From: Candidatus Methanomethylophilaceae archaeon
GTDB lineage: Archaea; Thermoplasmatota; Thermoplasmata; Methanomassiliicoccales; Methanomethylophilaceae
Length of the DNA: 64,000 nucleotides
NCBI GenBank assembly: GCA_944320495.1
Contig: CALUHR010000013.1
Span: 64,001 to 128,000, forward strand
Reading direction: 5' to 3'
Shown: positions 1-18,879 of the stretch, piece after piece
How the letters are laid out: each line of letters starts with the position of its first letter
How positions within the stretch are numbered: the stretch's first letter is position 1
The notes under the pieces: generated by a model
Database searches by the model: none
Seen by the model: the letters and a program-made list of their open reading frames with translations, nothing else
What the model was told of the DNA's origin: nothing
Program-made: the position numbers and the translations under genes

Positions 1-2
1 GG

Positions 3-608: not shown

Positions 609-616
609 CGGTCATC

Positions 617-646: not shown

Positions 647-660
647 TATTCTCATCAGAC

Positions 661-1191: not shown

Positions 1192-1199
1192 TTTAAATA
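1192..1199 (+). promoter_or_regulatory. Archaeal TATA box upstream of the aIF-1A operon
   Basis: TTTAAATA about 28 nt upstream of ATG 1227, in an AT-rich intergenic tract. Confidence 0.5.
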
Positions 1200-1226
1200 G
1201 AGAATCCCTTCATGGGTCCCTTATAA

Positions 1227-1565: not shown

Positions 1566-1573
1566 GAGGTTCC

Positions 1574-2371: not shown

Positions 2372-2916
2372 GGTCCATAAGGATACCCGCCGACAGGGTC
2401 GGCACCCTCATAGGGAAGAACGGAGAGGTCAAGAAGACCCTCCAGAACATCTCCGGGATCAAGATCGATGTGGACACCGAGGAGGGGGAGGTCATCCTCC
2501 ACGACGACGTGGAGCTCGAGGACCCCCTCAAGGCGCTCCAGCTCATGGACGTCGTCAAGGCCGTCGGCAGGGGGTTCAACCCCGAGAAGGCCATGAGGCT
2601 GTTCGAGGACGACGAGTACCTCGAGGTCGTTGATCTCAAGGAGTTCGTCGGCGAGCGCTCCAACCAGCTCGCCAGGATCCGCGGGAGGCTCATCGGCAAG
2701 GACGGCAAGACCCGCAGGATCATCGAGGACCTGACCGGCTGCGATATGGTGATCTACGGCAACACCGTCGGGCTGATCGGGAACTCCGTCACACTCCCCG
2801 TGGCCAAGCACGCCGTGGAGCTCATCCTCCAGGGCAGCGAGCACGCCACCGTGTACCACTATCTGGAGAGCCAGCGCCCCCGCCTCCGCATCGCGGAGAT
2901 GGGATTCGACCTGTGA
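2368..2916 (+). CDS. KH-domain rRNA processing protein (Dim2/Pno1-like)
   Basis: Two GxxG KH motifs ('GTLIGKNG', 'GRLIGKDG'), conserved position after rio1, ATGA overlap. Confidence 0.92.
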   Translation: MRSIRIPADRVGTLIGKNGEVKKTLQNISGIKIDVDTEEGEVILHDDVELEDPLKALQLMDVVKAVGRGFNPEKAMRLFEDDEYLEVVDLKEFVGERSNQLARIRGRLIGKDGKTRRIIEDLTGCDMVIYGNTVGLIGNSVTLPVAKHAVELILQGSEHATVYHYLESQRPRLRIAEMGFDL

Positions 2917-2925
2917 GGCGACCCC

Positions 2926-4152
2926 ATGGAGGACTGGATCTACGAGAACCTGGAGACCGCCCGCGCCCTCGCTTCCGAGGGACTGTGCGACAGGTGCCTG
3001 GGCCGCATGTTCGGCAAGGTCGGCACCGGCATGACCAACGACGAGCGCGGACGCATGGTCCGCGAGGCTCTCGCGGAGGAGGGAGACTGCCCTCCCGCAG
3101 TGTCGCCCTGTCCCCTGTGCGAGGACATCTTCGACCTGCTCCCCCGCTTCGCCGAGAACGTGGCGGAGGCGGTGAACCCCATAGAGTCCGACAACTTCCT
3201 CGTCGGCACCAAGGTCGAACCCGAGATCGCCGAGCGCGAGAGGGCCCTGTGGGAGAAGCACCAGCTCCAGAGCCCGGAGGCCATCAAGTCCGAGCTCAAC
3301 CGCGAGATCGGCAAGCTGGCACTCCCCATGATCCACCGCCCGGTGGAGTTCAAGAACCCCCAGGTGGTCGCCCTGGTGGACACCCGCTTCGGCGAGGTCA
3401 AGCTGGACATCGCCCCCCTCTTCATCGCCGGCCGCTACAACAAGTACAGCCGCGAGATCCCCCAGACCATATGGCCCTGCAGGGAGTGCCACGGCAAGGG
3501 ATGTCCCCACTGCCACGGCAAGGGCAAGATGTACGAGACCTCGGTGCAGGAGATCATCGGGGACATCGCCCTGGAGATGGCCGACGGGAAGGAGCACTTC
3601 TTCCACGGCATGGGCCGCGAGGACATCGACGCGCGCATGCTCGGTGACGGGAGGCCCTTCGTCCTGGAGATCTCCCAGCCCAGGAGGAGGTTCATAGACC
3701 TGGACGAGCTCGAGAGGAGGTCCAGCGCAGGCGACATGGCAGCGTTCAACTCCCTGCACTTCGTCCAGCGCGAGGCCGTCGAGAGATACAAGGGTGCCGC
3801 GTCCGACAAGGTCTATCGCGTGCGCGTTAAAGCAGACGGCAAAGTTAATAAAGAGGCAGTAGTTGACGTCGCCTTATCGTTCAAGGACGCCGATATAGAA
3901 CAGAGGACTCCACGCCGTGTCGAGCACAGAAGGGCCGACCTGGTCAGGAAGAGGAGGATCCACTGGGTGACGGCGGACTCCTTCGACGGGGACCGGTTCG
4001 ACCTCGAACTCGAGACCGACTCCGGCACGTACGTGAAGGAGTTCGTGTCCGGGGACGACGGCCGCACTCACCCCAACTTCTCTGAGAGGCTTGGGATCCA
4101 GTGCGTCGTCGAGGCCCTCGACGTATTGGCGATTGACTATCACGAACCACGA
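2926..4152 (+). CDS. pus10: tRNA pseudouridine(54/55) synthase Pus10 (408 aa if CGA at 4150-4152 is the stop)
   Basis: 'LCDRCLGRMF', 'GRYNKYSREIPQT.W', 'FHGMGREDIDARMLG.GRPFVLE', 'SGTYVKEFVSGD.GRT.P', terminal 'LDVLAID'. First in-frame CGA follows four codons after 'AID', 10 nt before the rpl21e ATG. Confidence 0.92.
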
Positions 4153-4162
4153 GGGATTCACA

Positions 4163-4456
4163 ATGCAGGCATCCAGAGGAACAAGGACCAAAACCCGCAA
4201 CCTCCTGAAGAAGAAGCCGAGGGCACGCGGCCTGTCCCCCATCACCAAGGGACTCCAGACCTTCGAGCCCGGCGACAAGGTCAACATCATCATCGACCCC
4301 AGCGTCCACAAGGGCATGCCCTTCTCCAGGTTCCACGGTCTCACCGGCGTCGTCATCGACTCCAGGGGAGAGGCCTACGAGGTCAGCGTCAAGGACGGCA
4401 ACAAGACGAAGATCGTCGTCGCCCGCCCCGAGCACCTCGTCAGGACCATGGAGTGA
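4163..4456 (+). CDS. rpl21e: 50S ribosomal protein L21e
   Basis: 'MQASRGTRTKTR..L.K..R.RG', 'F..GDKV.I.IDPSVHKGMP..RFHG.TG.V', 'K...ARPEHL'. Confidence 0.97.
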   Translation: MQASRGTRTKTRNLLKKKPRARGLSPITKGLQTFEPGDKVNIIIDPSVHKGMPFSRFHGLTGVVIDSRGEAYEVSVKDGNKTKIVVARPEHLVRTME

Positions 4457-4462
4457 GGTCCC

Positions 4463-4789
4463 ATGGAGCAGAGGTACCTCACGGTCGCCGAGGTGGGGGC
4501 GCTCCTCCAGGCCGAATCAGAGGCCAGGGGATACGACTTCATGCTCGCCTCCCAGAAGGCGGCGCTCGACCACGCGCAGAAGACCTGCGCGATTACGAAG
4601 GAGCAGGCGGACGCCATCGTGGCCGCCGCCCTCCAGCTCGACTTCGTGACCGAGCCCGTGGCCGTGAAGATCGCCGACCTGCTCCCCTCCACCCCCGAGG
4701 ACGTGCGCGCCATCTTCGCCAAGGAGAGGGTCGTCCTCGAGAAGGAGCAGATAGACGCCGTCATCGACATCGTCAGCGACAACTCGTGA
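4463..4789 (+). CDS. rpoF: RNA polymerase subunit Rpo4 (RpoF)
   Basis: 'AVKIADLLP.TPEDVRAIFAKER' with conserved synteny rpl21e-rpoF-DUF655-ksgA. Confidence 0.92.
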   Translation: MEQRYLTVAEVGALLQAESEARGYDFMLASQKAALDHAQKTCAITKEQADAIVAAALQLDFVTEPVAVKIADLLPSTPEDVRAIFAKERVVLEKEQIDAVIDIVSDNS

Positions 4790-4798
4790 CGTGATCAA

Positions 4799-5350
4799 GT
4801 GGAAGACTACGCCTACATCCTCGACTGGCTGCCGACCGGTGCCACCGGCGGCGGATTCTCCAAACGCGAACCCCTCGTCTACGCCATCGGCGCGGAGGAG
4901 TTCAAGCTCTTCGAGCTCGTCCCGAAGGCTACCGCGCAGGTGACCATAGGCACCAGGACCTACATCGGGAAGGACACCCCCCAGATCAAGAGGGACGTTA
5001 TCGACCACGTCAAGAGGCGCATCGGTTTCAACGAGCTCACCAGCAACGCCCAGAGCGAGCTGGAGTACGCTGTGACCGACATAGTCATGGCCGACCAGGC
5101 CAGGTTCGTGAAGTTCTTCAACGAGGCCGAGGGGATCAGCCTCCGCAAGCACATGCTTGAGGAGCTGCCCGGCCTCGGGAAGAAGTCCATGGCCACCATC
5201 CTCGAGGAGAGGAAGAAGGGTCCGTTCAAGGACTTCGCAGACCTCACCGAGCGCACCGGCATCAAGGCGCCCGAGAAGTTCATCGTTTCGCGCATCGTGC
5301 TCGAGATCTCCGATCCCGACAGGAAGCGCTACATCTTCGTCTCCAGATGA
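4799..5350 (+). CDS. DUF655 family putative RNA-binding protein
   Basis: 'EDYAYILDWLP.G', 'LRKHMLEELPGLGKK....ILEER...PF.DF.DL..R'. GTG start. Confidence 0.9.
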   Translation: MEDYAYILDWLPTGATGGGFSKREPLVYAIGAEEFKLFELVPKATAQVTIGTRTYIGKDTPQIKRDVIDHVKRRIGFNELTSNAQSELEYAVTDIVMADQARFVKFFNEAEGISLRKHMLEELPGLGKKSMATILEERKKGPFKDFADLTERTGIKAPEKFIVSRIVLEISDPDRKRYIFVSR

Positions 5351-6132
5351 GCACCGCCAGAGAGCTCATGGCCTCCGCGGGAGTCGTCCCGAAGAAGAGC
5401 AAGGGGCAGAATTTTCTGATTGACGACCGCGTGGCGGACCGCATCGTCGGCTACGCCGGCATCACGCCCTCCGACAGGGTGCTGGAGATCGGCCCCGGGT
5501 TCGGCGTCCTCACAGATAGGCTCGCCGGCATGGGATCGAGCCTCACGTGCATCGAACTTGATACCAAGCTCGCATCCTACATCAGATCGACCTACGGCGA
5601 CCGCCTCACGCTCATCGAGGGCGACGCGGTCAAGGTCCCCTTCCCGGAGTTCGACGTCCTCGTCAGCAACCTGCCGTACAGCGTCTCGACCCCCATCATC
5701 TTCAAGCTCCTGGACCGCCCGTTCAGACGCGCCGTCGTCATGGTCCAGAAGGAGTTCGCCGACCGCATGGTCGCGGACGTCGGCAGCCCCGAGTACTCGA
5801 GGCTCACCGTCAACCTGTTCTACCGCGCCGAGTGCGAGATACTCGAACCCGTCCCCGCGTCCAGGTTCGACCCCAGGCCCAAGGTTGACTCCGCCGTAGT
5901 CGGCATAACGCCGAGACCCGCGCCGTTCGAGGTCCTCGACGAGCGCACGTTCTTCAAGGTGACCGAGGCCTGCTTCAACCAGCGCAGGAAGAAGATCGGC
6001 ACCGCCCTCAGGAACTACCGTCTGGTGGAGTCGTCCGAGAACATACCCTACAGGGACGACCGCATAGAGGACCTCCGTCCGGTGGAGATCGCCGAGATCG
6101 CTGACGCGGTGTTCCTGACCAGCAGACAGCGA
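5347..6132 (+). CDS. ksgA: 16S rRNA m6,2A dimethyltransferase KsgA/RsmA (261 aa with CGA stop 6130-6132)
   Basis: 'KKSKGQNFL', 'VLEIGPGFGVLT', 'VSNLPYSVSTP', 'MVQKEFA.R', 'F.PRPKVDSAVV'. CGA lies shortly after the terminal helix; the standard-code stop is 6171. Confidence 0.93.
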
Positions 6133-6202
6133 TCGCTTCAACCAGACCGCCGGCGAAGAGGGGCAGGTTGATATACAACATATTGTCTGATTGCGGGACA
6201 TC

Positions 6203-6919
6203 ATGAGGCACGACCATATCGCCAGACGCATCCTCGTCTTCGCGATGGGTCTTCTGGTGATCTCGCTGAGCATCGGATTCATCACGAAGGCGTCCCTCGG
6301 GACCCCTCCGATCTCCTCCATCCCCTACAGCCTGTCACTGATCTTCCCATCGCTGACGCTCGGCAACTTCACCATCCTCTACAGCCTGCTGCTCGTGTTC
6401 CTGCAGCTCGTCATCCTCGGGAAGGAGGCGGACAAGCTCAGCCTCGGTCTCCAGGTCATCATATCATTCGTGTTCGGGTACTTCATCGACTTCGGGCTCA
6501 TGGTGCTGGGCGACTTCGCGCCAGACGCCTACTGGGAGCAGGTCGTCTGCGTCCTGATCGGATGCTTCGGACTCGCCCTTGGGGTCTATCTGCAGATCAT
6601 CGCCGACTTCACCATGGTCCCAGGGGACGGCTTCGCCTACGCGCTCTCGGTGAAGATCAAGAGGAAGCCCTACAGGGTCGTCCGCGTCTGCTCGGACGTG
6701 ACGATGATCGTCATCGCCGCCCTGCTCGGCTTCATCGCCATGGGCGGGACCGGAGGGGTGCGCGAGGGCACCGTCATCTGCGCGCTCCTGATCGGCACCA
6801 TAGCGGGAGTCTACTTCAGCAAGCTGAGGTGGCTCACCGTCAGGCTCTTCCCGGAGGATGCCCAGGAGACCGTAGTCACCGCCGAACCCGCGGGGGGATC
6901 CGGTGCCAGCGGACAGTGA
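6203..6919 (+). CDS. YczE/YyaS/YitT (DUF6198-like) membrane protein
   Basis: 'ASLGTPPISSIPYSLS', 'LTLGNFT', 'GVREGTVICALLIG'; multiple TM segments. Confidence 0.8.
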   Translation: MRHDHIARRILVFAMGLLVISLSIGFITKASLGTPPISSIPYSLSLIFPSLTLGNFTILYSLLLVFLQLVILGKEADKLSLGLQVIISFVFGYFIDFGLMVLGDFAPDAYWEQVVCVLIGCFGLALGVYLQIIADFTMVPGDGFAYALSVKIKRKPYRVVRVCSDVTMIVIAALLGFIAMGGTGGVREGTVICALLIGTIAGVYFSKLRWLTVRLFPEDAQETVVTAEPAGGSGASGQ

Positions 6920-7346
6920 CATCCTGGCCGTGGCCCGCATGCTCCGCATCGCGGGGCGCGAGGTCACGAGACGCCGCGACGCCCATGCCGCCAGCCTCGG
7001 GCTGACATCGTCCCAGGCGGATGCGCTCACGTTCATCCGCGAGCATCCGGGATGCATGATCGCCGACCTCGGGGCCTATTCAGGCTCCTCGCACCAGGCG
7101 GCCAGGACCCTCGTCGAGAGGCTGCGGGAGAGGGGACTGGTCGAGGTCTCCGTATCGGACAGGGACGCCCGCGCAAGGGTCCTCGAGATAACCCCCCGCG
7201 GAATACTCCTGCACGACAGGTTCCTCGCCATGGGCGCGGAGTCCTTCGGCAACATCAGGGAATCCTTCGACGAGGGCGAGGTCAGGGACCTCAGGGACAC
7301 CTTGGAGAGGTTGATGGCGCTCCTCGGTCTGGAGAGGACGGTCCGA
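6903..7346 (+). CDS. MarR family transcriptional regulator (CGA stop 7344-7346)
   Basis: 'LGLTSSQADAL.FI', 'LVERL.ERGLV....S.RDARAR.L.ITPRG'. GTG start; TGA 5 codons after the CGA. Confidence 0.85.
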
Positions 7347-7368
7347 TCCGTATTTCTATGGTGACACG

Positions 7369-7950
7369 ATGTCATCGAACATGGATCTCGAGAGGTTCAG
7401 AGAGCTGATGGCGAGGGACGGAAGGATCGTCTTCCCCTCCGAGGACGTAGGCGCGTTCTTGAACGAGGCGGCCGACAGGTCCCGCCGCATCACCATGGAC
7501 CTCAACACCGAATACCACACGATGGAGGAGATCCGCTCCATCATGTCGGAGCTCATATGCGAGCCCGTGGGCGAGGGGTTCAGATTGTTTCCTCCGTTCC
7601 ATGCGGACTTCGGCATGAACATCCACATCGGAAGGGACGTGTTCATCAACGAGGGGTGCTGCTTCCAGGACCAGGGAGGAATCTGGATAGGCGACGGATC
7701 GATGATAGGTCAGCAGGTCGTCATGGCCACCCTCGACCACGACCTGGACCCGGAGCACAGATATGACATGTTCCCGGGGCCGATTCACATCGGCAGGAAC
7801 GTCTGGGTCGGTGCCCATGCGACGATACTCAGGAACGTGACCATAGGCGACGGGGCCGTCGTGGCGGCCGGTGCGGTGGTCACGAGGGATGTCCCGCCGA
7901 ACACGGTCGTCGCCGGGGTGCCAGCGAAAGTCGTGAAGACCGTGGATCGA
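7369..7950 (+). CDS. Maltose/galactoside O-acetyltransferase (hexapeptide repeat; 193 aa with CGA stop 7948-7950)
   Basis: 'PPFHADFG.NI.IG..VFIN', 'PIHIG.NVWVGA.ATIL.NVTIGDGAVVAAGAVVTRDVP.NTVVAGVPAKVVKT'. The family ends at this last motif and CGA follows 2 codons later; the standard code gives 625 aa running across ychF. Confidence 0.9.
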
Positions 7951-8026
7951 TTCTGGCACTTCGGATGCGGATGGGAAATCGCCCGACACAATTTAACGCG
8001 AGTACCCCCATCGGCCCCGGGATCAC

Positions 8027-9214
8027 ATGCAGATAGGAATCGTAGGGAAGCCGAACGTCGGCAAGTCGACCTTCTTCGGAGCAGCCACCATGGCGCCGGT
8101 GGAGATCGCCAACTATCCCTTCACCACCATCGAGCCCAACAAGGGCGTCGCTTACGTGCGCACACCGTGCCCCTGCAGGGAGCTCGGCGTCAAGTGCACA
8201 CCGCACAACTCGATCTGCGTCGACGGGACCAGGATGGTCCCAGTGGAACTCCTGGACGTCGCCGGGCTGGTCCCCGACGCGTGGCAGGGCAAGGGCCTGG
8301 GAAACAAGTTCCTGGACGACCTGAGGCAGGCGGACGCCCTGATCAACGTCGTGGACGCCAGCGGCTCCACCGACATCGAGGGGAACCCCGTGGACACCGG
8401 CACCCACGACCCGACCGAGGACATCCTGTTCCTCAGGACCGAGATCGAGTGCTGGATGCGCGAGATCATCAAGAACGGCTTCGCCAAGATAGCCAGACAG
8501 GCCAAGATGCAGGGATCCAAGCCCGAGGCGATACTCGCGGAGAGGCTCCAGGGGCTGAAGGTCACCGAGACCCAGATCAAGGAGGCCCTGAGAGAGGTCC
8601 CTCTCCCGGACGACCCCACCAAGTGGGACGACGACCTTCTGCTGAAGCTGTGCGGAGCCATCCGCGAGCGCTCCAAGCCGATGATCGCCGCCATGAACAA
8701 GGCCGATCTCGCCTCGAAGGAGAACCTCGCGAAGATCGAGGCGGTCAACCCGATCTGCGTCCCCACCATGGCCGAGACCGAGCTCGCCCTCAAGAAGGCC
8801 GCCGCCGGCGGACTGGTGGACTACACCCCGGGCGACGCCACCTTCAGGATCAAGGACGGGGCGAAGGTCTCCGAGGGACAGAGGAAGGCCCTCGAGTACA
8901 TGGCGGAGAACATGGAGCGCAACGGCGGCACCGGCGTCCAGAGATGCATCGAGGAGGCCGCGTTCAAGATGCTGGACCTCATCTGCGTCTATCCCGTCGA
9001 GGACGAGACCAAGTTCACCGACCACTTCGGCAGGGTCCTGCCGGACGCGTTCCTGGTGCCCCGCGGCAGCACCGCCCGGGACCTGGCGTACCGCGTGCAC
9101 ACCGACCTCGGGGACAAGTTCATACGCGCCGTCAACGCGAAGACCAAGCGCACCGTCGGTGCGGACTACGTCCTCCAGGACGGCGACGTCATCAGGATAG
9201 TCGCCAACAAGTGA
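8027..9214 (+). CDS. ychF: Obg-family ATPase YchF/OLA1
   Basis: 'GIVGKPNVGKSTFF', 'ANYPFTTIEPN', 'DVAGLVP.A..G.GLGNKFL', C-terminal TGS domain. Confidence 0.95.
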   Translation: MQIGIVGKPNVGKSTFFGAATMAPVEIANYPFTTIEPNKGVAYVRTPCPCRELGVKCTPHNSICVDGTRMVPVELLDVAGLVPDAWQGKGLGNKFLDDLRQADALINVVDASGSTDIEGNPVDTGTHDPTEDILFLRTEIECWMREIIKNGFAKIARQAKMQGSKPEAILAERLQGLKVTETQIKEALREVPLPDDPTKWDDDLLLKLCGAIRERSKPMIAAMNKADLASKENLAKIEAVNPICVPTMAETELALKKAAAGGLVDYTPGDATFRIKDGAKVSEGQRKALEYMAENMERNGGTGVQRCIEEAAFKMLDLICVYPVEDETKFTDHFGRVLPDAFLVPRGSTARDLAYRVHTDLGDKFIRAVNAKTKRTVGADYVLQDGDVIRIVANK

Positions 9215-9221
9215 GGTTCCC

Positions 9222-11633
9222 ATGGAAACCGCGGAGATCAGGATAATCAGCACGTCGTCCGCCACCCTGGATGAGGAGCCCGTAGTAGAGATCTACGGCA
9301 AGGCCAGGGACGGCAGGTCCGTGACCGTCCTGGTCCGCGGGTTCCATCCGTACCTCTACGGGGTGGAGGTCCCGGAGAAGCTGGAGCGCCAGCTCTCCGA
9401 GGACCCCGAGGTCGTCTCGGTCGAGCACCATCCCCTCCTCTTCAGGGGGAGGAACGTCGATGCGCTGAGGATCACGATCAAGAGTCCCTGGAAGGTCTCA
9501 GACATGCGCAGCAGGCTCCGCGCCAACGGCGTCGAGTCCCTCGCATCCGACATCCCGTTCAACCACCGCTACATCTACGACCAGGACATGGGCGCCTGCA
9601 TCCGCGTGACGGGCGAGCCCGTGGACCGCGGGTACTTCACCGACCTGACGATCGAGCTGTCCTCGTTCGAGAACGTGGACCCCTTCGACCCCGGCCTGAA
9701 GACGCTGTCCTTCGACATCGAGAACAGCGTCGAGCACGATTTCCTGTACTGCATCTGCTCCGTGGTCCATGAGAACGGGACCATGCGGGCCTGCGACCCC
9801 ATCTACGGCACCGAGCCGCAGATCATCCAGGCCTTCTCCGACCTCATCAGGAGGGAGGACCCGGACGTCATCACCGGGTACAACATCGAGAACTACGACA
9901 TCCGCAAGATCGAGGAGCGCGCCAAGGCCAATCGCATGAAGGATGCGATGCCCTGGGGCCGCGACGGCAGCCAGCCGAGGCTGCGCAACGACCGCTTCTG
10001 GCGGGTGAGAGGGCGCATCGTGTGCGACGCCTGGTGGGCCGCCCGCAGAGAGCTCCATCCCAAGCAGGAGACCCTCAACGCGGTCTCCAAGGAGCTCCTC
10101 GGAGAGACCAAGCTGGACGTCGACCCCCGCCACATGGACCAGGAGTGGAGGGACAACCGCGCGAAGGTCCTCGAGTACTGCACCAAGGACGCGGAGCTGG
10201 CACTGCGCATCCTGAACGAGGTGGAGACGGTCCGCAAGGGTATGGACCTGGCGGCGGTGTCGAAGCTGTCGGTGGAAGACGTCCTCTCGTCCGGATCCTC
10301 GCAGCTCGCCGACTCGCTGCTCATCCGCGCGGCGGACCGCGCGAACGTCGCCGTCCCCCAGATGGGCAAGCGCACCAGGGACGACGAGCAGATCGAGGGG
10401 GGATACGTGCACGACATCAAACCGGGACTGTACCACTGGGTCTGCGTCCTGGACTTCAAGTCCATGTACCCGTCCACCATCATCGCCAAGAACATCTGCT
10501 TCACCACGCTCTCCCCCGACGGGGAGATCGTCGCCCCGTCAGGCACAAGGTTCCTCTCCAAGGAGAAGCGCCTCGGGCTCCTGCCGATGATCCTCCAGGG
10601 CCTCATGGACCAAAGGGATTCTATCAAGAGGCAGATGAAGCAGACGACGGACGAGCACGAGCGCAGATACCTGGACGGACTGCAGGCGGCCGTCAAGGTG
10701 CTGATGAACACATTCTACGGGGTGTTCGCCTCATCCTTCTACAGGTTCACGGACAAGAGCATCGGTGCCGCGATAACATCGTTCGCGCGTGCCAACGTCA
10801 AGGGCATCATCGGCGAGCTGCAGTCGGAGGGTCACCATGTGGTGTACTCGGACACCGACTCCGTCTTCGTCCAGTCGCCGAAGGACGACATGGACGGCGC
10901 CATAGGGTTCGGGACGGCGATGGCCGATCGCTACTCCCGGGACGGCGGCACGCTGGAGTTCGAGAAGATCCTCGAGCCCCTGTTCACCCACGGCAAGAAG
11001 AAGAGGTACGTCGGCCGCGTGGTATGGCCCGTGAGGCAGGAGGACCTGCTGGTGCGCGGATACGAGAGCAGGAGGACCGACTCCTTCGACCTCCAGGACC
11101 GCCTCCAGACAGAGATGTTCGCATGCATACTGGACGAGCGCAACGAAGACGCCCTGGCGCTTGCCAGGAAGGCGATCCAGGACACACTGGCCGGACGGGT
11201 GGACCCTTCGGACCTGGTGATATCCAAGACATGCAAGGGGCTAGATGCCTACGAGAACCCCGACCGCATGGCGAACGTCCAGGCGGCCAAGAAGATGATC
11301 GAGCTAGGGTACGACTTCATCCCGGGCATGAAGGTCTCGTGGATCGTCACCGACGCCAAGTCCGCCCCCATGAGGGTGGAGCCATACATCAGCGGTCCCC
11401 AGTTCACGGCGAAGCCCGACTACCGCTACTACGCGGAGCGTCTGGCGAAGATGGCCGGCATGGTCACAGATGTGCTTGGATGGGGCGAGAAGGACCTCAT
11501 GATGGGCAGCCAGCAGGCCACCCTCCTGGACGGCGGGATGTTCTCGTCCAAGGAGTCCGACGCCCCGCAGAGGGAGCCTCCGAAGGCCCCCAAGCCCAAG
11601 TCCAAGGTCCGGAGCCTTGACGAGTTCTTCCGA
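9222..11633 (+). CDS. polB: Family B DNA polymerase (803 aa with CGA stop 11631-11633)
   Basis: Exo I 'SFDIE', Pol A 'LDFKSMYPS', Pol B 'KVLMNTFYG', Pol C 'YSDTDS', 'KKRY'. Ends with the PIP-box-like 'KVRSLDEFF' immediately before CGA. Confidence 0.96.
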
Positions 11634-12167
11634 TCGCGACGCGAGCCTCGGACGGAGCGTCTCCCCCATCATCCTCAGCGTGATATCCGCCATCTCCTCC
11701 GGAGGGTCGGACATGCCCCTGTCGAACCACAGAACGAACCATGCCATCATCCCGCCGAGATGGTACTCCATCCGGTACATGGACGGGACGTCGCCTCCGT
11801 CTGTCGGGAAGTGCTCCCTCAGAACGGGGAGGAGCATGGGCGTGAGACCGCGGGAATGCAGGACGATCATCTCGTCGCGCTTCGCGTAGAACGAGGAGAA
11901 TATCGTCCCGACGTACGCCTTGACGGTCTCCCATCCGTCCATTTCGCTCGCCGCCCTGCTGATAGGCCGCATCGCACCTTCGTAGATGTACGACACGACC
12001 TCGTCAACCGACCCGAACCTGCGGTAGAACGACGTGCGGTTCATGCCCGCCTCCCGGGTCAGCATGCTCACGGTGACCTCGTCGTAAGTATGGTCCCTCA
12101 GCAGCCTTACCAGGGACGAGGCGAGAGCATCCGAGGTCCCATCACGAATATGAGACATATTAGGCAT
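11634..12167 (-). CDS. TetR/AcrR family transcriptional regulator (CGA stop 11636-11634)
   Basis: 'L..LL....YDEVTVSMLTREAGMNRTSFYRRFGSVDEV'; C-terminal 'GG......W...G...PPEEMA'. Start 12167 or 12158. Confidence 0.85.
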
Positions 12168-12232
12168 ATGTGTCTCATCACGGAATTCGTTATCGGAAAC
12201 CGTATAAATCATTATGATGGGGTCGAAGGATC

Positions 12233-12700
12233 ATGCGGTTCAGGACGATGAGACGCGTGGACAGGGACCTGGGCGCGGATGCTGCCCTCGGAATCATCAG
12301 GGACGGACATAGCGGCGTTCTCTGCGTGGATGGGGCGGAGGGCTACCCTTACGGCGTGCCCATGAACTACTGCTTCGATGGCGAACGCCTACTGTTCCAC
12401 TGTTCCAAACATCCGGGACTGCTCCTGGAGTCGATCGGGGACGGGTGCCGGGCTTTCTTCACCGTCGTCGATCACCTGGAGGGGACCAGGTCAAGGAGCG
12501 CCATAGCCTTCGGCACTGTCAGGGAGGACCCCAGCTCGATGCGGAGATGTCTGGAGGGAGTGATAGACAAGTACGTCCCGGAACCCGGTCGTGCGGGCGC
12601 GAAGGACGGAATCCCCAGTGCCGTGAATAGAGCCACAGCACTGGTGTTCACCATCGAACACGTCTCTGCGAAGGTCATCGACCGGCCCGAGGGGCGCTGA
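12233..12700 (+). CDS. Pyridoxamine 5'-phosphate oxidase / NimA-like flavin-binding protein
   Basis: 'MRR.DR', 'GVLC..G..GYPYGVPMNY......LLFHCS..G', 'RSAIAFG'. Confidence 0.8.
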   Translation: MRFRTMRRVDRDLGADAALGIIRDGHSGVLCVDGAEGYPYGVPMNYCFDGERLLFHCSKHPGLLLESIGDGCRAFFTVVDHLEGTRSRSAIAFGTVREDPSSMRRCLEGVIDKYVPEPGRAGAKDGIPSAVNRATALVFTIEHVSAKVIDRPEGR

Positions 12701-12702
12701 CC

Positions 12703-13065
12703 TCGGGCCTCTCCCAGACGTTCCATCATCTCGTTCACCCTATGACGCATGCGTGTGGCTGTGTTTATGGAGACCTCGCACTCCTCAGCGGTCTCCCTCA
12801 GAGTCGCACCCCGTGCGTGACACTCGACGAATATCGCCCACTTGTGCGCAGGAAGCTTGGTGCCTGCCATGACACCATTCCCGACGAACGTGCGTCCGCA
12901 CCCAGAGCATCTGAACCTCTGCGTTCCGCGAGACGTCCTGCCGAAGCGTACGTATTCTGTGCTCCCGCAGACCGGACATGATCCGTCAACCAGTGAAATC
13001 ATCATCTTCAGTCTGTCTCCACCGACGCTCCTCCTGGTGATTGCAGGCTCTTTACTGCCGCCCAT
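12703..13065 (-). mobile_element. Transposase-like fragment (IS1 InsA / IS1595-type zinc ribbon + HTH, no DDE domain); CGA stop 12705-12703
   Basis: 'CPVCGS..YVRFG....GTQRFRC..CGRTF' followed by the HTH 'TLRETAEECEVSINTATRMRHRV'. No catalytic domain or terminal inverted repeats seen. Confidence 0.6.
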
Positions 13066-13250
13066 GGATGGGAGATGTACTCGTATTATATCAACTGCTG
13101 TCTGTTATCTTTGTAATGTTTGTCATTGATTCGATCCAGGCTCGCCAACCACTTTCGGATGTTTCTGAGCGAGCGACAAGGCGGTGCGGGGACGCCGAGG
13201 CCGTCTGCAGGCGAACGGTTATCCAGAGGGCCTCAGATACGGATGACGAC

Positions 13251-13709
13251 ATGCTCGTACTGGACAGCTCCTACTTCTTCTCCTCCGACTCGCTCCCTGA
13301 CGAGGAGCACGTGTGCCCACCCGGCGTCATCCGCGAACTGGAGAACCACGGGGACCCCCGTCTGTCACTCTGGGGCGACATGGTCCGCGTGTCCGACTGC
13401 TCGAAGGGGTCCCTCAAGCGCGTCACAGAGGCCGCCCGCGGCAGCGGGGACCTGGGAAGGCTCTCCCCCGTCGACATGACCGTGCTGGCTCTCGCCCTGG
13501 ATGTGAACGGCACCATCCTCTCCGACGACTACTCCATCCAGAACGTGGCCAGGATACTCGGCATCCCGTTCAGGGCTGTCGGCACCGCCGGCATCAGGAA
13601 GGTCGCCAAGTGGAACTACCAGTGCATCGGCTGCCACAGGTGGTACAAGGAGAAGCTGCCGGAGTGCCCGGTGTGCGGATCGCCGATGCGGGCATGCAGG
13701 AAGAGGCGA
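13251..13709 (+). CDS. nob1: Nob1-like PIN endonuclease with zinc ribbon (152 aa with CGA stop 13707-13709)
   Basis: 'VLDSS.F', 'G.LGRLS.VD..VLALAL', 'SDDYSIQNVA..LGI', 'W...CIGC......CPVCGS'. True ATG at 13251. Confidence 0.9.
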
Positions 13710-14798
13710 TCACGGGAAGAGGCGCCTGCACCTGATCAGGTTGCCCATGCGCCTCTGCCCCAGGATCCTCATGCAGAGCTCGGTGCTCCTCTCGGACCTG
13801 AACGCGAAGGTGTCGGCGAGCCTCTTGTTGAACGCCGCCGTCCTCAGGGGCTTGTCCATGACCCTGCGCCACTGCGTCTCGTAATCGGAGAGCGGCGAGC
13901 CCGATTTTATGTTGGATGCGGCCACGGTCCCGCAGATCCTTCCGGCGATCATCGCCAGCGGGATGCCTCCTCCGTTGACGGATATGACCTGTCCGGCTGC
14001 GTCTCCGACGACCATGCCGTTGCCCTCCACAGTCTTGGGGATGGGGCCCTCGCTGGGGACGTACTTGCCCTGGAGCCTGGAGTGCTCGGCGAACCCGCGC
14101 TTCTCGGCGAAACGGTCGAAGTACTCGGACAGGGAGGTCCCGTCGGAGAACTTGGGCGAGAATCCCACGCCGACGTTGGCGCGGCCGTCCTTCGGTATGA
14201 TCCAGCTGTAGGCGCCGGGCGCGATGTCGCCGAAGTACATGTAGGTGTAGGGCTCGAAGTCGCCCTTGACCTGGGCGGTCACCGCGGGATAGAGGTTCTG
14301 GTTCCTCTGCAGGCCGAGGCTCTGGGCCACGCGGGACCCGGGGCCGTCGGCGCCGACCAGAACCTTGTAGCGTATGTCGCCCTGGGACGTCTTCGCGACC
14401 CCGCCCTCGATCCTGTCGAAGGCGCAGTTCATCTGCAGCTCGGCGCCGGCCTCGACGGCCTCGTGCGCCAGATACTGGTCGAAGCGGTCCCTGTCGGTGG
14501 TGTACCCGTCGAAGTCCAGGAGCGTGACCTTGTCCTTGGGGTCGACCAGCTTTATTCCCTTGATGTCCAGGCAGCGGAGGCCGTCCGGGACCGCGAAGAG
14601 CGACTCGTAGTCCTCCAGCTCCGGGAACATGAACTTGATCTCGGATGCGCCGGGCATGAACTCCCCGCATCTGACCGGCACGCCGACCTGGGAGCGCCTC
14701 TCGATCATGAGGACGGATGCGCCGGCCTCTGCGGCGAATCTCGCTGCGGTGCTTCCGGCGGGGCCGGAACCCACGACAAGGACGTCGACTGAATCCAT
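13710..14798 (-). CDS. Geranylgeranyl reductase family (digeranylgeranylglycerophospholipid reductase)
   Basis: 'DVLVVGSGPAGS.AA', 'VRCGE', 'DRDRFDQ.LA', 'GAYSWIIPK', 'VVGDAAGQV....GGGI'. Confidence 0.9.
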   Translation of the reverse strand: MDSVDVLVVGSGPAGSTAARFAAEAGASVLMIERRSQVGVPVRCGEFMPGASEIKFMFPELEDYESLFAVPDGLRCLDIKGIKLVDPKDKVTLLDFDGYTTDRDRFDQYLAHEAVEAGAELQMNCAFDRIEGGVAKTSQGDIRYKVLVGADGPGSRVAQSLGLQRNQNLYPAVTAQVKGDFEPYTYMYFGDIAPGAYSWIIPKDGRANVGVGFSPKFSDGTSLSEYFDRFAEKRGFAEHSRLQGKYVPSEGPIPKTVEGNGMVVGDAAGQVISVNGGGIPLAMIAGRICGTVAASNIKSGSPLSDYETQWRRVMDKPLRTAAFNKRLADTFAFRSERSTELCMRILGQRRMGNLIRCRRLFP

Positions 14799-14803
14799 TG
14801 GAA

Positions 14804-15769
14804 TCACCTGGTGCGCCTTATGACGTAGTCGGCGACATCGACGAAGGCGCTCTTGTAGACCGAGTCCGGGAGGATGTCGAGACATGCGACGGCGTCATGT
14901 GCCATGCCGTCGGCGAGGGACAGGCACCTCTGAATCGCATCGGTCCTCTGGATGAGTCCCAGGGCCTTCACGACATCGTCCTCCGTCGGTTGCTCCGTCT
15001 CGAATATGGCGCGGATCTCGTCCCCCAGCTTGGGGTCCTGCATCGCGTAGATGACCGGCAAGGTGGGCTTCCCCTCGATGAGGTCCGTCCCTATGGCCTT
15101 CCCGGTCTGATGCGGATCGCCGGTCACGTCGAGGGCGTCGTCCACGATCTGGAACGCGGAACCTATGGCCTGACCGAACTGACCGAGGCTCTCCAGGACC
15201 TCCACATCGGCACCCGCCACAGCGGCGCCCGATTTGATGGACGCCTCGAACAGCTTGGCCGTCTTGTGGTCGATGATGCGCAGGTAGTCCCCCTCGGTGA
15301 CGGAGGACCTGTGCTCGAAGTCCTTCTGGACGAACTCCCCGGCACCCATGGCGGCGGACGCGTCCACGATGTAGTTGACGATGTGGGGGGCGGCGTCGGC
15401 GAGGAGCTTGAAGCCCATGGCGAACATGAAGTCGCCGGCGATGATCGCCTTGCTGGTGGCGTACTGCCTGTGGAGGGCCTTCCTGCCGCGCCTGACCTCG
15501 CCCTGGTCGTTGATGTCGTCGTGGACGAGGGTGGCGCTGTGGATGATCTCGAATCCCGCGCCGATGCTTATCGGGATGCTGGCGTCCTTACCCCCGCACG
15601 CAAAGTAGGCGAGGAGGCACATAGACGGTCTGAGGCGCTTGCCTCCGGCACCGATCACATAGCGGCACATCTCGGAGAGCTCGGGATTCTCCGAATCCAA
15701 CGAGCGGTCCATCAGTGCCTCGAGCTGTTCCAGCTCCTGTGTGATGCATGAATGCCAGGGCTCTGCCAT
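14804..15769 (-). CDS. Polyprenyl (geranylgeranyl) diphosphate synthase
   Basis: 'GGKRLRP', FARM 'HDDIND....RRG', 'KTA.LF', SARM 'FQIVDDALD', 'DL.EGKPTLP'. Confidence 0.93.
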   Translation of the reverse strand: MAEPWHSCITQELEQLEALMDRSLDSENPELSEMCRYVIGAGGKRLRPSMCLLAYFACGGKDASIPISIGAGFEIIHSATLVHDDINDQGEVRRGRKALHRQYATSKAIIAGDFMFAMGFKLLADAAPHIVNYIVDASAAMGAGEFVQKDFEHRSSVTEGDYLRIIDHKTAKLFEASIKSGAAVAGADVEVLESLGQFGQAIGSAFQIVDDALDVTGDPHQTGKAIGTDLIEGKPTLPVIYAMQDPKLGDEIRAIFETEQPTEDDVVKALGLIQRTDAIQRCLSLADGMAHDAVACLDILPDSVYKSAFVDVADYVIRRTR

Positions 15770-15860
15770 CGCGCGTACATGCGCGTTCCCTATTTATGGT
15801 TGTACCTCGGAAGCACCAAGTGCCAGCAGCACAGGAACCGAAGGTCAAGCGTTGTCAGAA

Positions 15861-15884
15861 GGTAAGGGGTTTGGTAAGGGGTTT
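15861..15884. repeat. Tandem 12-bp duplication GGTAAGGGGTTT x2 just downstream of fpoN
   Basis: Exact copies at 15861-15872 and 15873-15884. C-rich on the transcribed (minus) strand; may be part of a terminator. Confidence 0.5.
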
Positions 15885-15895
15885 TGAGACTGCGT

Positions 15896-17377
15896 TCAGA
15901 GCAGCAGGGCTGCGGCGGCGGTCTCGCAGTAGTCGAAGATGAGCTGGGGGTAGACTCCCAGCACGATCACGAAGACCACGCAGATCACGATCGCGACGGT
16001 GAAGACCGCAGGGATCTTGATCTTCTCGGTGGACTCGCCCTTCTCGATGTACATCGCCTTGACGACCCTCGCGTAGTAGTACAGCGAGATCGCGGAGTTC
16101 AGGATGGCGATGAACGCCAGCCAGACCCACTGGGATGTCAGTCCGTCCACACCGCCCAGCGCGGAGCTGAACAGGAAGAACTTGGACGTGAATCCCGCGA
16201 GAGGCGGTATACCGGCCAGGGAGAACAGGAACAGCAGCATGGCGGCCGCCAGGAACGGAGACCTCTTTGCCAGTCCCTTGTAGTCCGAGATCTTCTCGCC
16301 GAGTCCGGCGCAGATCAGGGCTCCGACGATCAGGAACGCTCCGCCCTTCATGAACACGTGGGTGAACATGTGGAACATACCGGAGGCCAGGGCGTAGTCG
16401 GTCATGACCGCCATGACGATCAGGATGTAACCGGCCTGGGCGATAGAGGAGTACGCGAGCATCCTCTTGATGTTGTTCTGGGCGATCGCGACCACGTTTC
16501 CGACGGTCATGGTGAACGCCGCGATGATGGCGAAGAGGTACTGGACCTCCTCTCCGCAGATGGCGCTCAGGCTGGAGCCGGCGACGAACAGGACCAGGAA
16601 GATCTGGAAGAACACGCTCAGACCCATCTTCTTGGATCCCGTTGCCAGGAACAGGGAGACGGGCGAGGATGCTCCCTCGTACACGTCGGGCGCCCACATG
16701 TGGAAGGGCACGGCGGCGATCTTGAATCCATATCCGGCGACCATGCATACCAGGCCGATGGCCAGGATCCAGTTCATGCCGTCGATTGCCGTGGATGCGG
16801 CGATGGCGGCGATGTCCGTGGTCCCGGTGAGACCGTAGATCATGGAGATACCGTAGATGGTCAGGGCGGTGGACAGTCCTCCGACGATGACGTACTTGAC
16901 TCCGGCCTCGGCGGCCCTAGAGTCGTTCCTCTTCATCGTGACGAGGGCGTAGGACGAGATGCTGGTCAGCTCGACGCCGACGAAGATGGTCAGCAGGTCC
17001 GAGGACCCGGCGACGAACATCATACCGGTGGTGGCACCGGTCAGCAGGGCGTAGTACGCTCCGACGTGGAGCCTGGTGGTCTCGGTGCTCGCGTTGGAGA
17101 CCAGGATCGCCAGGAACAGCACGATCTGGAAGAGCAGCAGCATCACTCCGGTGTACGCGTCGTACTCGTACACGCCGAGGGTGGTTCCGGTGAACCCGTC
17201 CACGAGCATGTACGCGTTGACCGCCATCGAGACGACGGCGAAGACGAGCGCGACGGCCCAGGTGACGGTGTGCCTCTTTCCAGCGAAGTGCACTGCGGGC
17301 AGGATCAGCGCGGAGATCAGCATGATGATGATCGGCGCGAATGCGGCGTAATCGCCGAAGATTTCCTCAACGAACAT
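15896..17377 (-). CDS. fpoN: Fpo-like complex subunit N (NuoN)
   Basis: 'EAGVKY', 'FKIAAVPFHMWAPDVYEGA', 'NIKRMLAYSSIAQAGY', 'SLAGIPPLAGF.SKF'. Start at 17377, overlapping the fpoM stop. Confidence 0.95.
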   Translation of the reverse strand: MFVEEIFGDYAAFAPIIIMLISALILPAVHFAGKRHTVTWAVALVFAVVSMAVNAYMLVDGFTGTTLGVYEYDAYTGVMLLLFQIVLFLAILVSNASTETTRLHVGAYYALLTGATTGMMFVAGSSDLLTIFVGVELTSISSYALVTMKRNDSRAAEAGVKYVIVGGLSTALTIYGISMIYGLTGTTDIAAIAASTAIDGMNWILAIGLVCMVAGYGFKIAAVPFHMWAPDVYEGASSPVSLFLATGSKKMGLSVFFQIFLVLFVAGSSLSAICGEEVQYLFAIIAAFTMTVGNVVAIAQNNIKRMLAYSSIAQAGYILIVMAVMTDYALASGMFHMFTHVFMKGGAFLIVGALICAGLGEKISDYKGLAKRSPFLAAAMLLFLFSLAGIPPLAGFTSKFFLFSSALGGVDGLTSQWVWLAFIAILNSAISLYYYARVVKAMYIEKGESTEKIKIPAVFTVAIVICVVFVIVLGVYPQLIFDYCETAAAALLL

Positions 17378-18879
17378 CACAGCACCCCCACAAGGAAGTC
17401 GACGTAGGGATCGATGAAGCTCAGGGCTGCATCGGGCCATACTCCGAACAGGGCGACGAGGACGGCCAGGACGGCGAGCGCGACGAACTCGGGCTTGCTG
17501 ATGTCGTGGACGTGCTCCAGGTCGATCTTCTTGGTCTCGGGGCCGAACAGGGTCTTCTGCATGGCCCAGATGTAGTAGCCGGCGGTGAGCATGAGCGTCA
17601 GCAGGCAGAACACCAGCAGCCACATCACGCCCTCGGCCTTGATGAACTCGTAGAACCCGTAGACGAGCGGGAACTCTCCCCAGAACCCGACCAGACCGGG
17701 CAGTCCGAGGGAGGCCATGAAGGCGATCATCATGAAGGTCGCGTAGATGGGCATCCTGCCGGCGAGTCCGCCGAGCAGGGGCATCTCTCTGGTTCCGACG
17801 GCGTGTCCGGTGAATCCGCACACCATGAACAGCATGGCGCTGATCAGTCCGTGGGCGAACATCTGGAAGATCGCGAAGGTTATTCCGATGTCGGACAGGC
17901 ATCCGATTCCGACCATGACCATTCCCATGTGGCTGATGGACGAGAACGCCACCATCTTCTTGAGATCGGTCTGGGCGATGCAGGCGTAGGCTCCGTAGAC
18001 CATCGAGATGAGACCGATGGCGATGATCACCCACTGCCAGTACGCCGCCCCCTCGGGGAAGCACTCGAGGCAGATCCTGATGATACCGTAGGATCCCATC
18101 TTCAGCATGACACCGGCCAGGATGACGGATCCGGCGGTGGGCGCCTCGACGTGCGCGTCGGGCAGCCAGGTATGGAAGGGCACGGACGGCATCTTCACCA
18201 TGAATCCGAAGAAGAGCAGGGCGAAGACGGCGACCTGGAACGCCTGAGAGGTGGCGGGCATGATCTCGGCCATCGTGTCGAAGCCGAAGTCCATGGTTCC
18301 GGTGACGGCCATGCACTCCCAGCCCATCGCGAAGATTCCGATGAGCATGACCAGCGAGGCCACGTGGGTGTAGATGAAGAACTTGATGGCGGCGTAGTGC
18401 CTCCTCGGTCCTCCGTACCAGCTGATCAGGAAGTACATCGGGATGAGGGTGACCTCCCACATGACGTAGAACAGGAAGTAGTCCGCCGCCATGAAGACGC
18501 CCATCAGGCCGACCTCCATCGCCATCAGCAGGGTGTGGAAGTAGTTCGCCCTGTCGCTCTCCGCGGAGGAGAAGACGACGACGAGCAGGGTCAGCAGGGC
18601 CGTCAGGAAGATCATCAGGACGCTGAGTCCGTCGACCATGAGGTCGAATCCGATGTGGACGGAGCTGGTGTCGATCCAGTCGTACCCGACGGTGAAGACC
18701 GTCCAGTCCTCGAAGCCCGCGTACATCATGTACAGGGTGACGATCAGAGTGATCCCGGAGAAGACTCCGGCGACCCACTTGGCGTATTTCTGCTTCTCGC
18801 CGCCCATGAACAGGGTTGCGACCGCTCCGATGAGCGGGATGACGATCAGCAGAGGCAGTATGAGAGACTCGATGCTCAC
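17377..18879 (-). CDS. fpoM: Fpo-like complex subunit M (NuoM)
   Basis: 'DGLS', 'FYVMWEVTLIPMYFLI', 'VKMPSVPFHTWLPDAHVEAPT.GS', 'DLKKMVAFSSISHMG'. Confidence 0.95.
   Translation of the reverse strand: MSIESLILPLLIVIPLIGAVATLFMGGEKQKYAKWVAGVFSGITLIVTLYMMYAGFEDWTVFTVGYDWIDTSSVHIGFDLMVDGLSVLMIFLTALLTLLVVVFSSAESDRANYFHTLLMAMEVGLMGVFMAADYFLFYVMWEVTLIPMYFLISWYGGPRRHYAAIKFFIYTHVASLVMLIGIFAMGWECMAVTGTMDFGFDTMAEIMPATSQAFQVAVFALLFFGFMVKMPSVPFHTWLPDAHVEAPTAGSVILAGVMLKMGSYGIIRICLECFPEGAAYWQWVIIAIGLISMVYGAYACIAQTDLKKMVAFSSISHMGMVMVGIGCLSDIGITFAIFQMFAHGLISAMLFMVCGFTGHAVGTREMPLLGGLAGRMPIYATFMMIAFMASLGLPGLVGFWGEFPLVYGFYEFIKAEGVMWLLVFCLLTLMLTAGYYIWAMQKTLFGPETKKIDLEHVHDISKPEFVALAVLAVLVALFGVWPDAALSFIDPYVDFLVGVL

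Follow-up and report, generated by a model that had tools for sequence, protein, structure and literature searches.

Two convergent genes of a chicken-gut methanogen, one encoding a family B DNA polymerase (PolB) and the other a TetR-family regulator, meet on the palindrome CGATCG, and we questioned whether both of them end there, on CGA, a codon that normally specifies arginine, and how such ends might be recognised by the ribosome. Within the window (the whole 64,000-nucleotide stretch of DNA analysed), positions 11625-11642 read TTC TTC CGA TCG CGA CGC, which contain a CGA in the PolB frame at 11631-11633 on the plus strand and a CGA in the TetR frame at 11636-11634 on the minus strand. The two triplets abut with a gap of 0, together forming the palindrome at 11631-11636, as the preliminary description had it. 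Judged from translated frames and orthologous ends, both genes end at CGA.

The PolB frame opens with ATG at 9222 and extends over 803 codons to ...VRSLDEFF (9222-11630, plus strand). Its product matched the Pfam profiles DNA_pol_B (PF00136, 186 bits, 1.2e-54) and DNA_pol_B_exo1 (PF03104, 55 bits), orthologues from 20 relatives aligned with it across residues 1-803, and the putative PCNA-binding (PIP-like) terminal motif, x-L-[DE]-[DE]-F-[FL], was kept in 12 congeners. Polymerase and exonuclease domains, with a PIP-like motif at the very end, thus mark the predicted product as a family B polymerase. The first standard stop in the frame is at 12249-12251, giving a 1009-aa open reading frame under translation table 11. 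The ~205 codons added in this way (11634-12251, plus strand) run antisense through the TetR gene and appear spurious: their codon score was -0.91, and nine of 207 codons are CGA (counting the one at 11631) compared with none of the 803 in the body. A profile search found no Pfam family in this tail or in the corresponding tail of TetR, and the PolB tail differs in sequence even in a strain that is 97% identical. Among same-genus genomes, the PolB end codon lies at the same position, after F(F/L), and is TGA in six of 12 and CGA in the other six. The conserved extension of about 200 residues that the preliminary description had named in advance as evidence against an end at CGA was not found. 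Among public homologues, 81 of 103 stop at FF and 22 run on, with mutually unrelated tails of 1-390 aa whose first residue is R in every case (22/22); public table-11 calls stretch PolB to 936-1192 aa in several records. The description of PolB as an essential replicative polymerase is overstated: the genome also encodes PolD, and in archaea that possess this enzyme, Thermococcus and Methanococcus among them, PolD is the essential replicase. The gene for the large subunit of PolD, however, also has CGA at its end, and there too the junction is zero-gap.

The TetR gene occupies 11637-12158 on the minus strand. The table-11 frame that contains it opens at 12212, and its start is probably the ATG at 12158 (MSHIRDG...), the sole candidate methionine kept in the sister species. 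The frame reads ...RMMGETLRPRLAS, ending ...RPRLAS immediately before the CGA, which gives a length of 174-192 aa. TetR_N was matched at 31.4 bits (cut-off 24), whereas the C-terminal TetR_C_8 match was weak (21.8 bits, under the cut-off of 26.1). The product fits the TetR family, whose members are about 190 aa long and combine an N-terminal helix-turn-helix domain with a helical C-terminal ligand domain. An end at CGA is supported by three observations: ten residues short of it the TetR_C_8 match was already at profile position 101 of 103, the sister-species orthologue ends ...RPRLAT|CGA, and a paralogue in genome G004 has CGA at the homologous end position. Past the CGA the frame stays open down to 11304, and these 109 codons (11304-11633, minus strand), antisense through the 3' end of polB, also appear spurious from their non-coding score; in-frame CGA is found in 0 of 192 codons of the body and three of 111 in the tail. 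Public annotation under table 11 leaves the TetR gene uncalled.

The arrangement at 11631-11636 recurs elsewhere in the genome. A search for CGATCG at convergent junctions returned 13 CGA|TCG cases among 29 zero-gap convergent junctions, alongside 15 mixed junctions and one TGA|TCA. Zero-gap spacing was seen in 13 of 29 convergent CGA/CGA pairs genome-wide, whereas for TGA/TGA pairs the figure was one of 96 (Fisher p = 5e-9), and CGA made up 71% of the stops at zero-gap junctions. Two further cases lie in the window: one at 27302-27307, between proC (P5C reductase, plus strand) and a B12-binding radical SAM gene (minus strand), where the P5CR_dimer profile was matched over 1-105 of 105 positions up to residue 267 of 269 in ProC, and another at 58036-58041, between a Tpt1/KptA RNA 2'-phosphotransferase (plus strand) and a small gene of 105 aa (minus strand). 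At 37501-37504 (TCGA), the convergent CGA stops of an EamA transporter (plus strand) and a GNAT acetyltransferase (minus strand) share 2 nt. An ordinary zero-gap TGA|TCA junction has the same geometry, with stops abutting on a GATC-centred palindrome, and relatives carry such TGATCA junctions (three in 100 kb of G004, one in 60 kb of G006), whereas here TGA|TCA survives at only one of the 29. Since zero-gap [C/T]GA|TC[G/A] junctions are recurrent and relatives show TGA|TCA, the earlier comparison of this locus to a TGA|TCA junction is apt. The suspicion that chance had not placed the two CGAs side by side was likewise borne out by the CGA-free gene bodies, the TGA or CGA at the orthologous PolB codon and the genome-wide excess of zero-gap pairs.

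Genome-wide, 401 of 1,653 self-called genes (~24%) end on CGA, while only four in-frame CGAs flanked by coding sequence on both sides were found in ~560,000 codons. Of all 64 codons, CGA behaved most like a stop, with non-coding sequence downstream of 88% of its occurrences compared with 86% for TGA. Swaps between CGA and TGA at aligned C-termini were found in each congener sampled (for example nine pairs in G008 and six in G004), and the same pattern of CGA ends was present in G010, G001, G004 and G009. Use of CGA at gene ends was lowest where codon adaptation was highest, at 4.7% in the top codon-adapted decile compared with 34% in the lower half (p = 6e-26). This is the signature of a weaker stop, as is the finding that 22.9% of CGA ends have a standard stop within five codons compared with 16.2% of TGA ends (p = 0.003). 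With CGA absent inside conserved coding sequence, present at homology-defined C-termini and followed by non-coding sequence, comparative evidence indicates that it is an extra stop signal across the genus, and probably a leaky one.

We examined the release factor and the cognate tRNA in light of these patterns. An alignment of 18 aRF1 sequences contained no substitution in the NIKS or YxCxxxF motifs that tracked CGA use, and NIKS and YRCDS were unchanged both in other families of the order and in congeners where CGA stops are few, so an aRF1 change was rejected as the discriminating cause. The arginine at x of YxCxxxF (YRCDS) aligns with position 123 of yeast eRF1; because it is common to the whole order and also to Aeropyrum aRF1, its role is permissive at most. 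The aRF1 gene itself contains one of the four internal CGAs (...SIAA-R-LKT); 10 of 11 congeners have CGA at this same position, and none of eight genomes of other families does. Its conservation in congeners implies that CGA can still be decoded as arginine. This conserved in-frame CGA early in the gene for a release factor is reminiscent of prfB autoregulation, but no +1 frameshift is needed, as the frame continues and the CGA is read through as arginine. Loss of the tRNA was rejected too, since tRNA-Arg(UCG) was present in G000 and in all 12 congeners (with one copy truncated where its contig ends). Its anticodon arm was anomalous in every congener, with a 31:39 mismatch in 10 (again including one truncated copy) and, in three, C33 together with a C.C mismatch at 27:43, whereas it was canonical in four other families of the order, as were the other G000 tRNAs examined. 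The covariance model used here was built on a structure supplied by hand; the RNAalifold structure was not a cloverleaf. Because tRNA-Arg(UCG) has been retained with compensatory stem changes, it is under selection and can presumably read CGA. Retention of the tRNA, together with an aRF1 codon that must be read, places CGA in a dual-use class and sets it apart from a clean sense-to-stop reassignment of the organelle type.

The explanation we favour, and consider probable, is that both genes end at CGA, which would serve as a nearly purged fourth stop signal, weaker than TGA, with release by ordinary aRF1. Termination at CGA is here inferred from comparative genomics. Near-removal of CGA from coding sequence in the genus would have left it usable as a stop, so that TGA-to-CGA changes at gene ends would be tolerated and a zero-gap TGA|TCA junction could have turned into CGA|TCG. 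Unaltered aRF1 would read CGA as a near-cognate of UGA and release the peptide, its arginine in YxCxxxF lying at the position where the L123R change in yeast eRF1 favours both UGA and CGA, and would outcompete a tRNA-Arg(UCG) weakened by the genus-specific anticodon-arm defects. That tRNA would have been kept for the few CGAs, including the one within aRF1, that still need to be read as arginine. Since some CGAs must still be read in this way, termination is probably leaky, and the need of aRF1 for its internal CGA to be read makes some read-through at polB and tetR likely. Retention of a tRNA that can presumably read CGA and the aRF1 codon that must be read weigh against the explanation. High leakage would also be costly where at least 100 open codons follow, as they do behind a quarter of CGA ends, and aRF1 offers no change that tracks the trait, its motifs being the same in low-CGA congeners. 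More tentatively, with somewhat less than even confidence, we suggest that the meaning of CGA depends on context, being a stop at gene ends (best in CGAUC and CGAUG junctions) and arginine at a sensor site in aRF1. Competition between aRF1 and the weakened tRNA would in that case regulate itself, making it an archaeal equivalent of RF2 autoregulation, linked to a sense-to-stop change still under way. The base after CGA ends was T in 54%, and whether it was T or not did not predict nearby backup stops at CGA (p = 0.47).

Several other readings of the CGA ends were weighed against termination by aRF1. It is unlikely that CGA is effectively unreadable and that stalled ribosomes are freed by a rescue pathway (Pelota/ABCE1-type or another) instead of canonical aRF1, even though the tRNA-Arg(UCG) arm is anomalous throughout the congeners, highly adapted genes avoid CGA, and ribosome stalling at CGA is known in yeast. 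To our knowledge, Pelota-type factors do not hydrolyse peptidyl-tRNA, so an extra hydrolase would be needed for a quarter of the proteome; moreover, the CGA within aRF1 is read, and yeast eRF1 can itself release at CGA (PMC7379694). That CGA is plain arginine, with PolB, TetR and about 400 other proteins truly extended to the next standard stop, strikes us as slightly less credible still. Maintenance of tRNA-Arg(UCG) and the aRF1 codon that must be decoded would fit plain arginine, as would the slightly greater frequency of standard stops close behind CGA. However, the distance to the next standard stop did not differ overall between CGA and TGA ends (Mann-Whitney p = 0.27), close relatives have unrelated tails, each of which begins where others have TGA, the tails run antisense through neighbouring genes with non-coding composition, and four CGAs in gene bodies beside 401 at ends is unlike a normal rare arginine codon.

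Editing of mRNA from C to U, which would convert CGA to UGA at gene ends and leave a standard translated stop, appears about equally improbable. The two codons are one C/U change apart, CGA replaces only TGA-type positions, and such editing is known from plant organelles, but we know of no mRNA C-to-U editing in archaea. A conserved CGA within aRF1 would, in addition, have to escape it, and CGA ends stand in varied sequence contexts. Window positions 1-20000 were compared with contigs from one DNA run and three RNA-type runs, and only one RNA contig clearly bridged a CGA end in that range: a metatranscriptome contig (run X16, 7775-8009, 0 differences) that keeps an unedited CGA at the stop at 7948-7950, albeit as a single contig in which DNA carry-over is possible. 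Contigs spanning 4150-4152 had one difference, at a site that was not listed. That the CGA ends are an artefact of sequencing or assembly, for instance through systematic miscalling of T as C at a methylated motif of the GATC type, is effectively refuted. CGATCG is palindromic and T is the base most often found after CGA ends, as such miscalls would predict, but at 46% of CGA ends the next base is not T and TGATCA is not depleted (614 sites compared with 692 for CGATCG), which led us to reject a restriction-site or methylation artefact. CGA ends also occur in at least five congeners of differing assembly fragmentation, and three other CGA ends lie in stretches where DNA contigs from another run showed 0 differences. 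The hexamer is kept at the polB/TetR junction in four independent assemblies of the sister species and the stretch is partly present in metagenome runs of seven studies, so the junction DNA itself is real. A frameshift to a hidden stop was also dropped, as neither the -1 nor the +1 frame at TTC-CGA-TCG contains a stop.

Sense-to-stop codes are known from organelles (NCBI tables 2, 22 and 23), with AGA/AGG in vertebrate mitochondria, TCA in Scenedesmus and TTA in Thraustochytrium mitochondria. There, as here, gene ends carry a codon that the standard code reads as an amino acid and that gene bodies lack. The present case differs in that the codon is CGA and the setting chromosomal, in a free-living (gut) archaeon of ~1,650 genes, that the cognate tRNA is kept, and that at least one essential gene (aRF1) needs CGA as arginine. 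In yeast, eRF1/eRF3 misdecodes CGA and releases the peptide there, competing with a tRNA-Arg that decodes the codon poorly (Wada and Ito 2018, PMC7379694); one CGA at the terminal position is enough for termination to be detected, and L123R enhances it. The release factors belong to the same family, and the enhancing Arg 123 corresponds to the arginine of this aRF1, but release at CGA in yeast is a minor side reaction or rescue on reporters, whereas ~24% of natural genes would rely on it here. A stop function for CGA was also raised as a possibility for two hydrothermal-vent archaeal assemblies whose HMM-matched regions lack CGA (Melnykov 2026 preprint, 10.64898/2026.04.02.715157), as conserved domains do here. 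In those ~50% GC assemblies, CGG is read as Trp, a tRNA-UCG is lacking and stop use was untested; in the present genome, Arg/Lys is what CGG aligns with, a tRNA-Arg(UCG) exists and stop use is shown by comparative evidence. UAG in methanogens is reported to be ambiguous between stop and pyrrolysine (PMC12626013), likewise giving one codon two meanings per cell through competition between aRF1 and a tRNA, although UAG is a stop gaining sense whereas CGA would be a sense codon gaining stop. In recoding of the Blastocrithidia type, a tRNA-Trp with a 4-bp anticodon stem is reported to read UGA, a stop-to-sense change (PMC13092985). A shortened anticodon stem also accompanies a change of meaning in the UGA/CGA neighbourhood there, whereas here the mismatch sits in the cognate tRNA of the codon becoming a stop, and its effect is putative.

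CGA as an extra stop has not been established for any free-living organism. Because table 11 extends PolB and misses the TetR gene, about a quarter of the proteins in these genomes are probably mis-annotated under it, and both cellular DNA polymerases, PolB and the large subunit of PolD, end on CGA. If CGA terminates translation here, no earlier sense-to-stop change of the genetic code would have been documented except in organelles. The change would also have been caught in an intermediate, ambiguous state, with the tRNA kept, the release factor unchanged and less use of the codon in the best-adapted genes, and how codons change meaning would become directly testable in culturable gut methanogens.

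In the window, the genes for a family B DNA polymerase (PolB) and a TetR-type regulator converge on the sequence TTC TTC CGA TCG CGA CGC (11625–11642). On the forward strand, PolB (Pfam DNA_pol_B, 186 bits, plus an exonuclease domain) runs from the ATG at 9222 to 11630 (803 codons, ending ...KVRSLDEFF) and is followed directly by CGA (11631–11633). On the reverse strand, the TetR-type frame (TetR_N, 31.4 bits, above cut-off) opens at 12212, ends ...RPRLAS and is also followed directly by CGA (11636–11634). The sequence and both translations agree with the preliminary description that the two genes end back-to-back at CGA/TCG, the palindrome CGATCG consisting of two abutting CGA triplets. The TetR start is likely the ATG at 12158, the sole candidate methionine retained in the sister species, and a weak match to TetR_C_8 extends as far as position 101 of the 103 in the profile, at residue 182 of 192. 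Under table 11, which reads CGA as Arg, the PolB frame stays open to 12251 (1,009 aa) and the TetR frame down to 11304, each tail being the antisense of the opposite gene. A Pfam search found no families in either tail. In-frame CGA occurs nine times in the PolB tail, three times in the TetR tail and in neither gene body. Upstream of polB, at a spacing of 7 nt, lies an Obg/YchF-like GTPase gene (8027–9214, TGA), and the gene order MarR, GTPase, polB is common to the window and the sister species.

PolB is probably not the essential replicative polymerase it had been taken for, since PolD is present in the genome. The PolD large subunit (DP2, 1,129 aa; reverse strand of contig C14:5076–9371, locus L092) itself ends on CGA, forming a zero-gap CGA/TCG junction with a converging 301-aa gene, and its table-11 open frame is 1,924 aa.

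The genome under study (G000; 1.77 Mb in 14 contigs, with ~62% G+C in the window) belongs to Methanomethylophilaceae, judging by the names that PolB homologues carry. Across it we scored each of the 64 codons for coding-like sequence ceasing behind it, and CGA was the most stop-like of all. Behind CGA with coding sequence upstream (n = 298), the downstream sequence was non-coding in 88% of cases and coding in 2%; the same scoring gave 86% and 4% for TGA. In-frame CGA with coding sequence on either side was seen just four times genome-wide. A simple self-trained caller using four stops, which is crude and places starts approximately, yielded 1,653 genes, ending in TGA (1,176), CGA (401), TAA (52) or TAG (17). 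Coding-like sequence followed 59% of the 17 TAG ends, which fits TAG being largely read through (putative pyrrolysine) in this Methanomassiliicoccales lineage. Among orthologue pairs with aligned C-termini, CGA in G000 corresponded to TGA in same-genus relatives, for example G008 (9), G004 (6), G006 (5) and G002 (4), and the reverse was found for G010 (4) and G001 (2). CGA ends were frequent in the high-GC congeners G010, G001, G004 and G009 and rare in those of about 50–55% GC, where CGA is nearly unused. Counts across congeners are not independent, because these genomes are related.

The PolB C-terminus, x-L-[DE]-[DE]-F-[FL], was found in 12 same-genus genomes, and the next codon was TGA in six (G002, G005, G006, G007, G008, G011) and CGA in the other six (G000, G001, G003, G004, G009, G010). 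A standard stop follows this CGA within one to two codons in G004, G001 and G003; in G000 none occurs for 205 codons. A conserved extension in PolB orthologues had been named as the observation that would count against termination here, and none was present among these 12 genomes or 103 public homologues whose terminal motif could be recognised: 81 stop exactly at FF, and the other 22 have mutually unrelated tails of 1–390 residues, all starting with R. The polB–CGATCG–tetR arrangement is retained in four separate assemblies of the sister species (PolB identity 91%), where TetR ends ...RPRLAT before CGA. A TetR paralogue in G004 has a CGA end at the homologous place, and one in G009 has a standard stop a few residues further on. 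In the public annotation of the sister species (L088–L091: GCA_964304965.1, GCA_964306525.1 and two ENA assemblies), PolB is given as 936 aa and the TetR gene is left uncalled, a systematic error that comes of taking CGA as Arg. A strain whose PolB is 97% identical (ENA scaffold, L126:2462–2854) has another convergent gene set against the polB CGA, again with zero gap (CGA/TCA); this gene is InsA-like, with a zinc ribbon and HTH, and its stop is TGA. The strain's DNA ceases to resemble the window right after CGATC and does so again from the PIN-domain gene, the 1.6-kb segment carrying tetR and a pyridoxamine-oxidase-like gene (window 11634–12700) having been replaced; the polB 3′ flank is thus a variable island bounded by the stop junction. 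The window stretch is also present in chicken-gut and bird metagenomes. An assembly artefact was ruled out by independent assemblies and matching DNA contigs from another run.

Such junctions recur in G000. Among 225 convergent pairs of self-called genes, 29 had zero gap: CGA/TCG in 13, CGA/TCA in eight, TGA/TCG in seven and TGA/TCA in one. Those in the window lie at 11631, 27302 and 58036, with an overlapping TCGA at 37501. The share of CGA among stops was 71% where convergent genes had gaps of 0/−1, 61% at co-directional gaps of 0/−1 (NGATG; co-directional gap classes are rough because starts are approximate), 10% at ATGA stop/start overlaps, a form impossible for CGA, and 16–29% in all remaining classes. 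This excess goes beyond +4/+5 context (zero-gap versus other NGATC stops, OR 5.2, p = 2e-7). Relatives write the identical geometry as TGATCA, which bears out the description of the junction as the CGA equivalent of TGA/TCA and implies that the arrangement is old and its letters have changed.

Were CGA plainly read as Arg, the frames would simply be read through; this does not fit tails that are unrelated to one another, the alternation of TGA and CGA in orthologues, or the near-complete removal of CGA from within genes. A stop could also be made from CGA by C-to-U editing, but two observations make this less likely: one metatranscriptome contig (contigs, not reads) still has CGA at 7948–7950, and the gene for the archaeal release factor, aRF1, contains an internal CGA. 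Stalling at CGA with rescue that bypasses aRF1 is possible. We found no description of CGA as a stop in Methanomassiliicoccales. The closest literature is a study of CGA misdecoding by yeast eRF1, in which the wild type gave detectable release at a single terminal CGA and the UGA-biased L123R variant raised it, competing with tRNA-Arg (PMC7379694). A 2026 preprint goes no further than suggesting a possible CGA stop in two unrelated archaeal assemblies (10.64898/2026.04.02.715157); its vent archaea, with CGG reassigned to Trp, are unlike this lineage, in which CGG aligns with Arg/Lys.

Wholly from DNA, we infer that unaltered aRF1 would release at CGA in competition with an unusual tRNA-Arg(UCG). 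The aRF1 N-domain is ordinary (NIKS and YRCDSTFF) and near-identical order-wide and in congeners rich or poor in CGA ends; no aRF1 change tracking CGA-end use was found among the congeners and the order. The Arg of YRC aligns with human L126 and yeast L123 (His in Halobacterium, Arg in Aeropyrum) and, by analogy with yeast, would offer a permissive background, not proof. The tRNA-Arg(UCG) gene (C13:413317–413390; L076:1501–1574), compared with loci L077–L084, L098, L099 and L101, is present in G000 and 12 of 12 congeners, with one copy cut off at a contig end, and is under selection, as its stem changes are compensated. In 10 of these 13 genomes A39 lies opposite A31 or C31 (A.A or C.A mismatch), leaving a 4-bp anticodon stem; G005, G007 and G008 carry C33 in place of U33 and C.C at 27:43. 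The arm is canonical in the tRNA-Arg(UCG) of four other families in the order and in other G000 tRNAs examined, and the anomalies are specific to the genus.

CGA looks to be a weaker stop than TGA. It ends 4.7% of genes in the top codon-adapted decile and 34% in the lower half (p = 6e-26), and a standard stop follows within five codons behind 22.9% of CGA ends and 16.2% of TGA ends (p = 0.003). Of the four internal CGAs, the one in aRF1 (reverse strand, C2:85942–87135, locus L019, outside the window) encodes the Arg of ...SIAA-R-LKT, ~20 residues past NIKS (GCT CGA CTC AAA), so CGA is still readable as Arg. At this position 10 of 11 congeners likewise have CGA; the eight genomes from other families use AGG, AGA, CGC or CGG instead. 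Synthesis of aRF1 may in this way sense the balance between aRF1 and the tRNA, and the internal CGA may serve as read-through autoregulation of the release factor.
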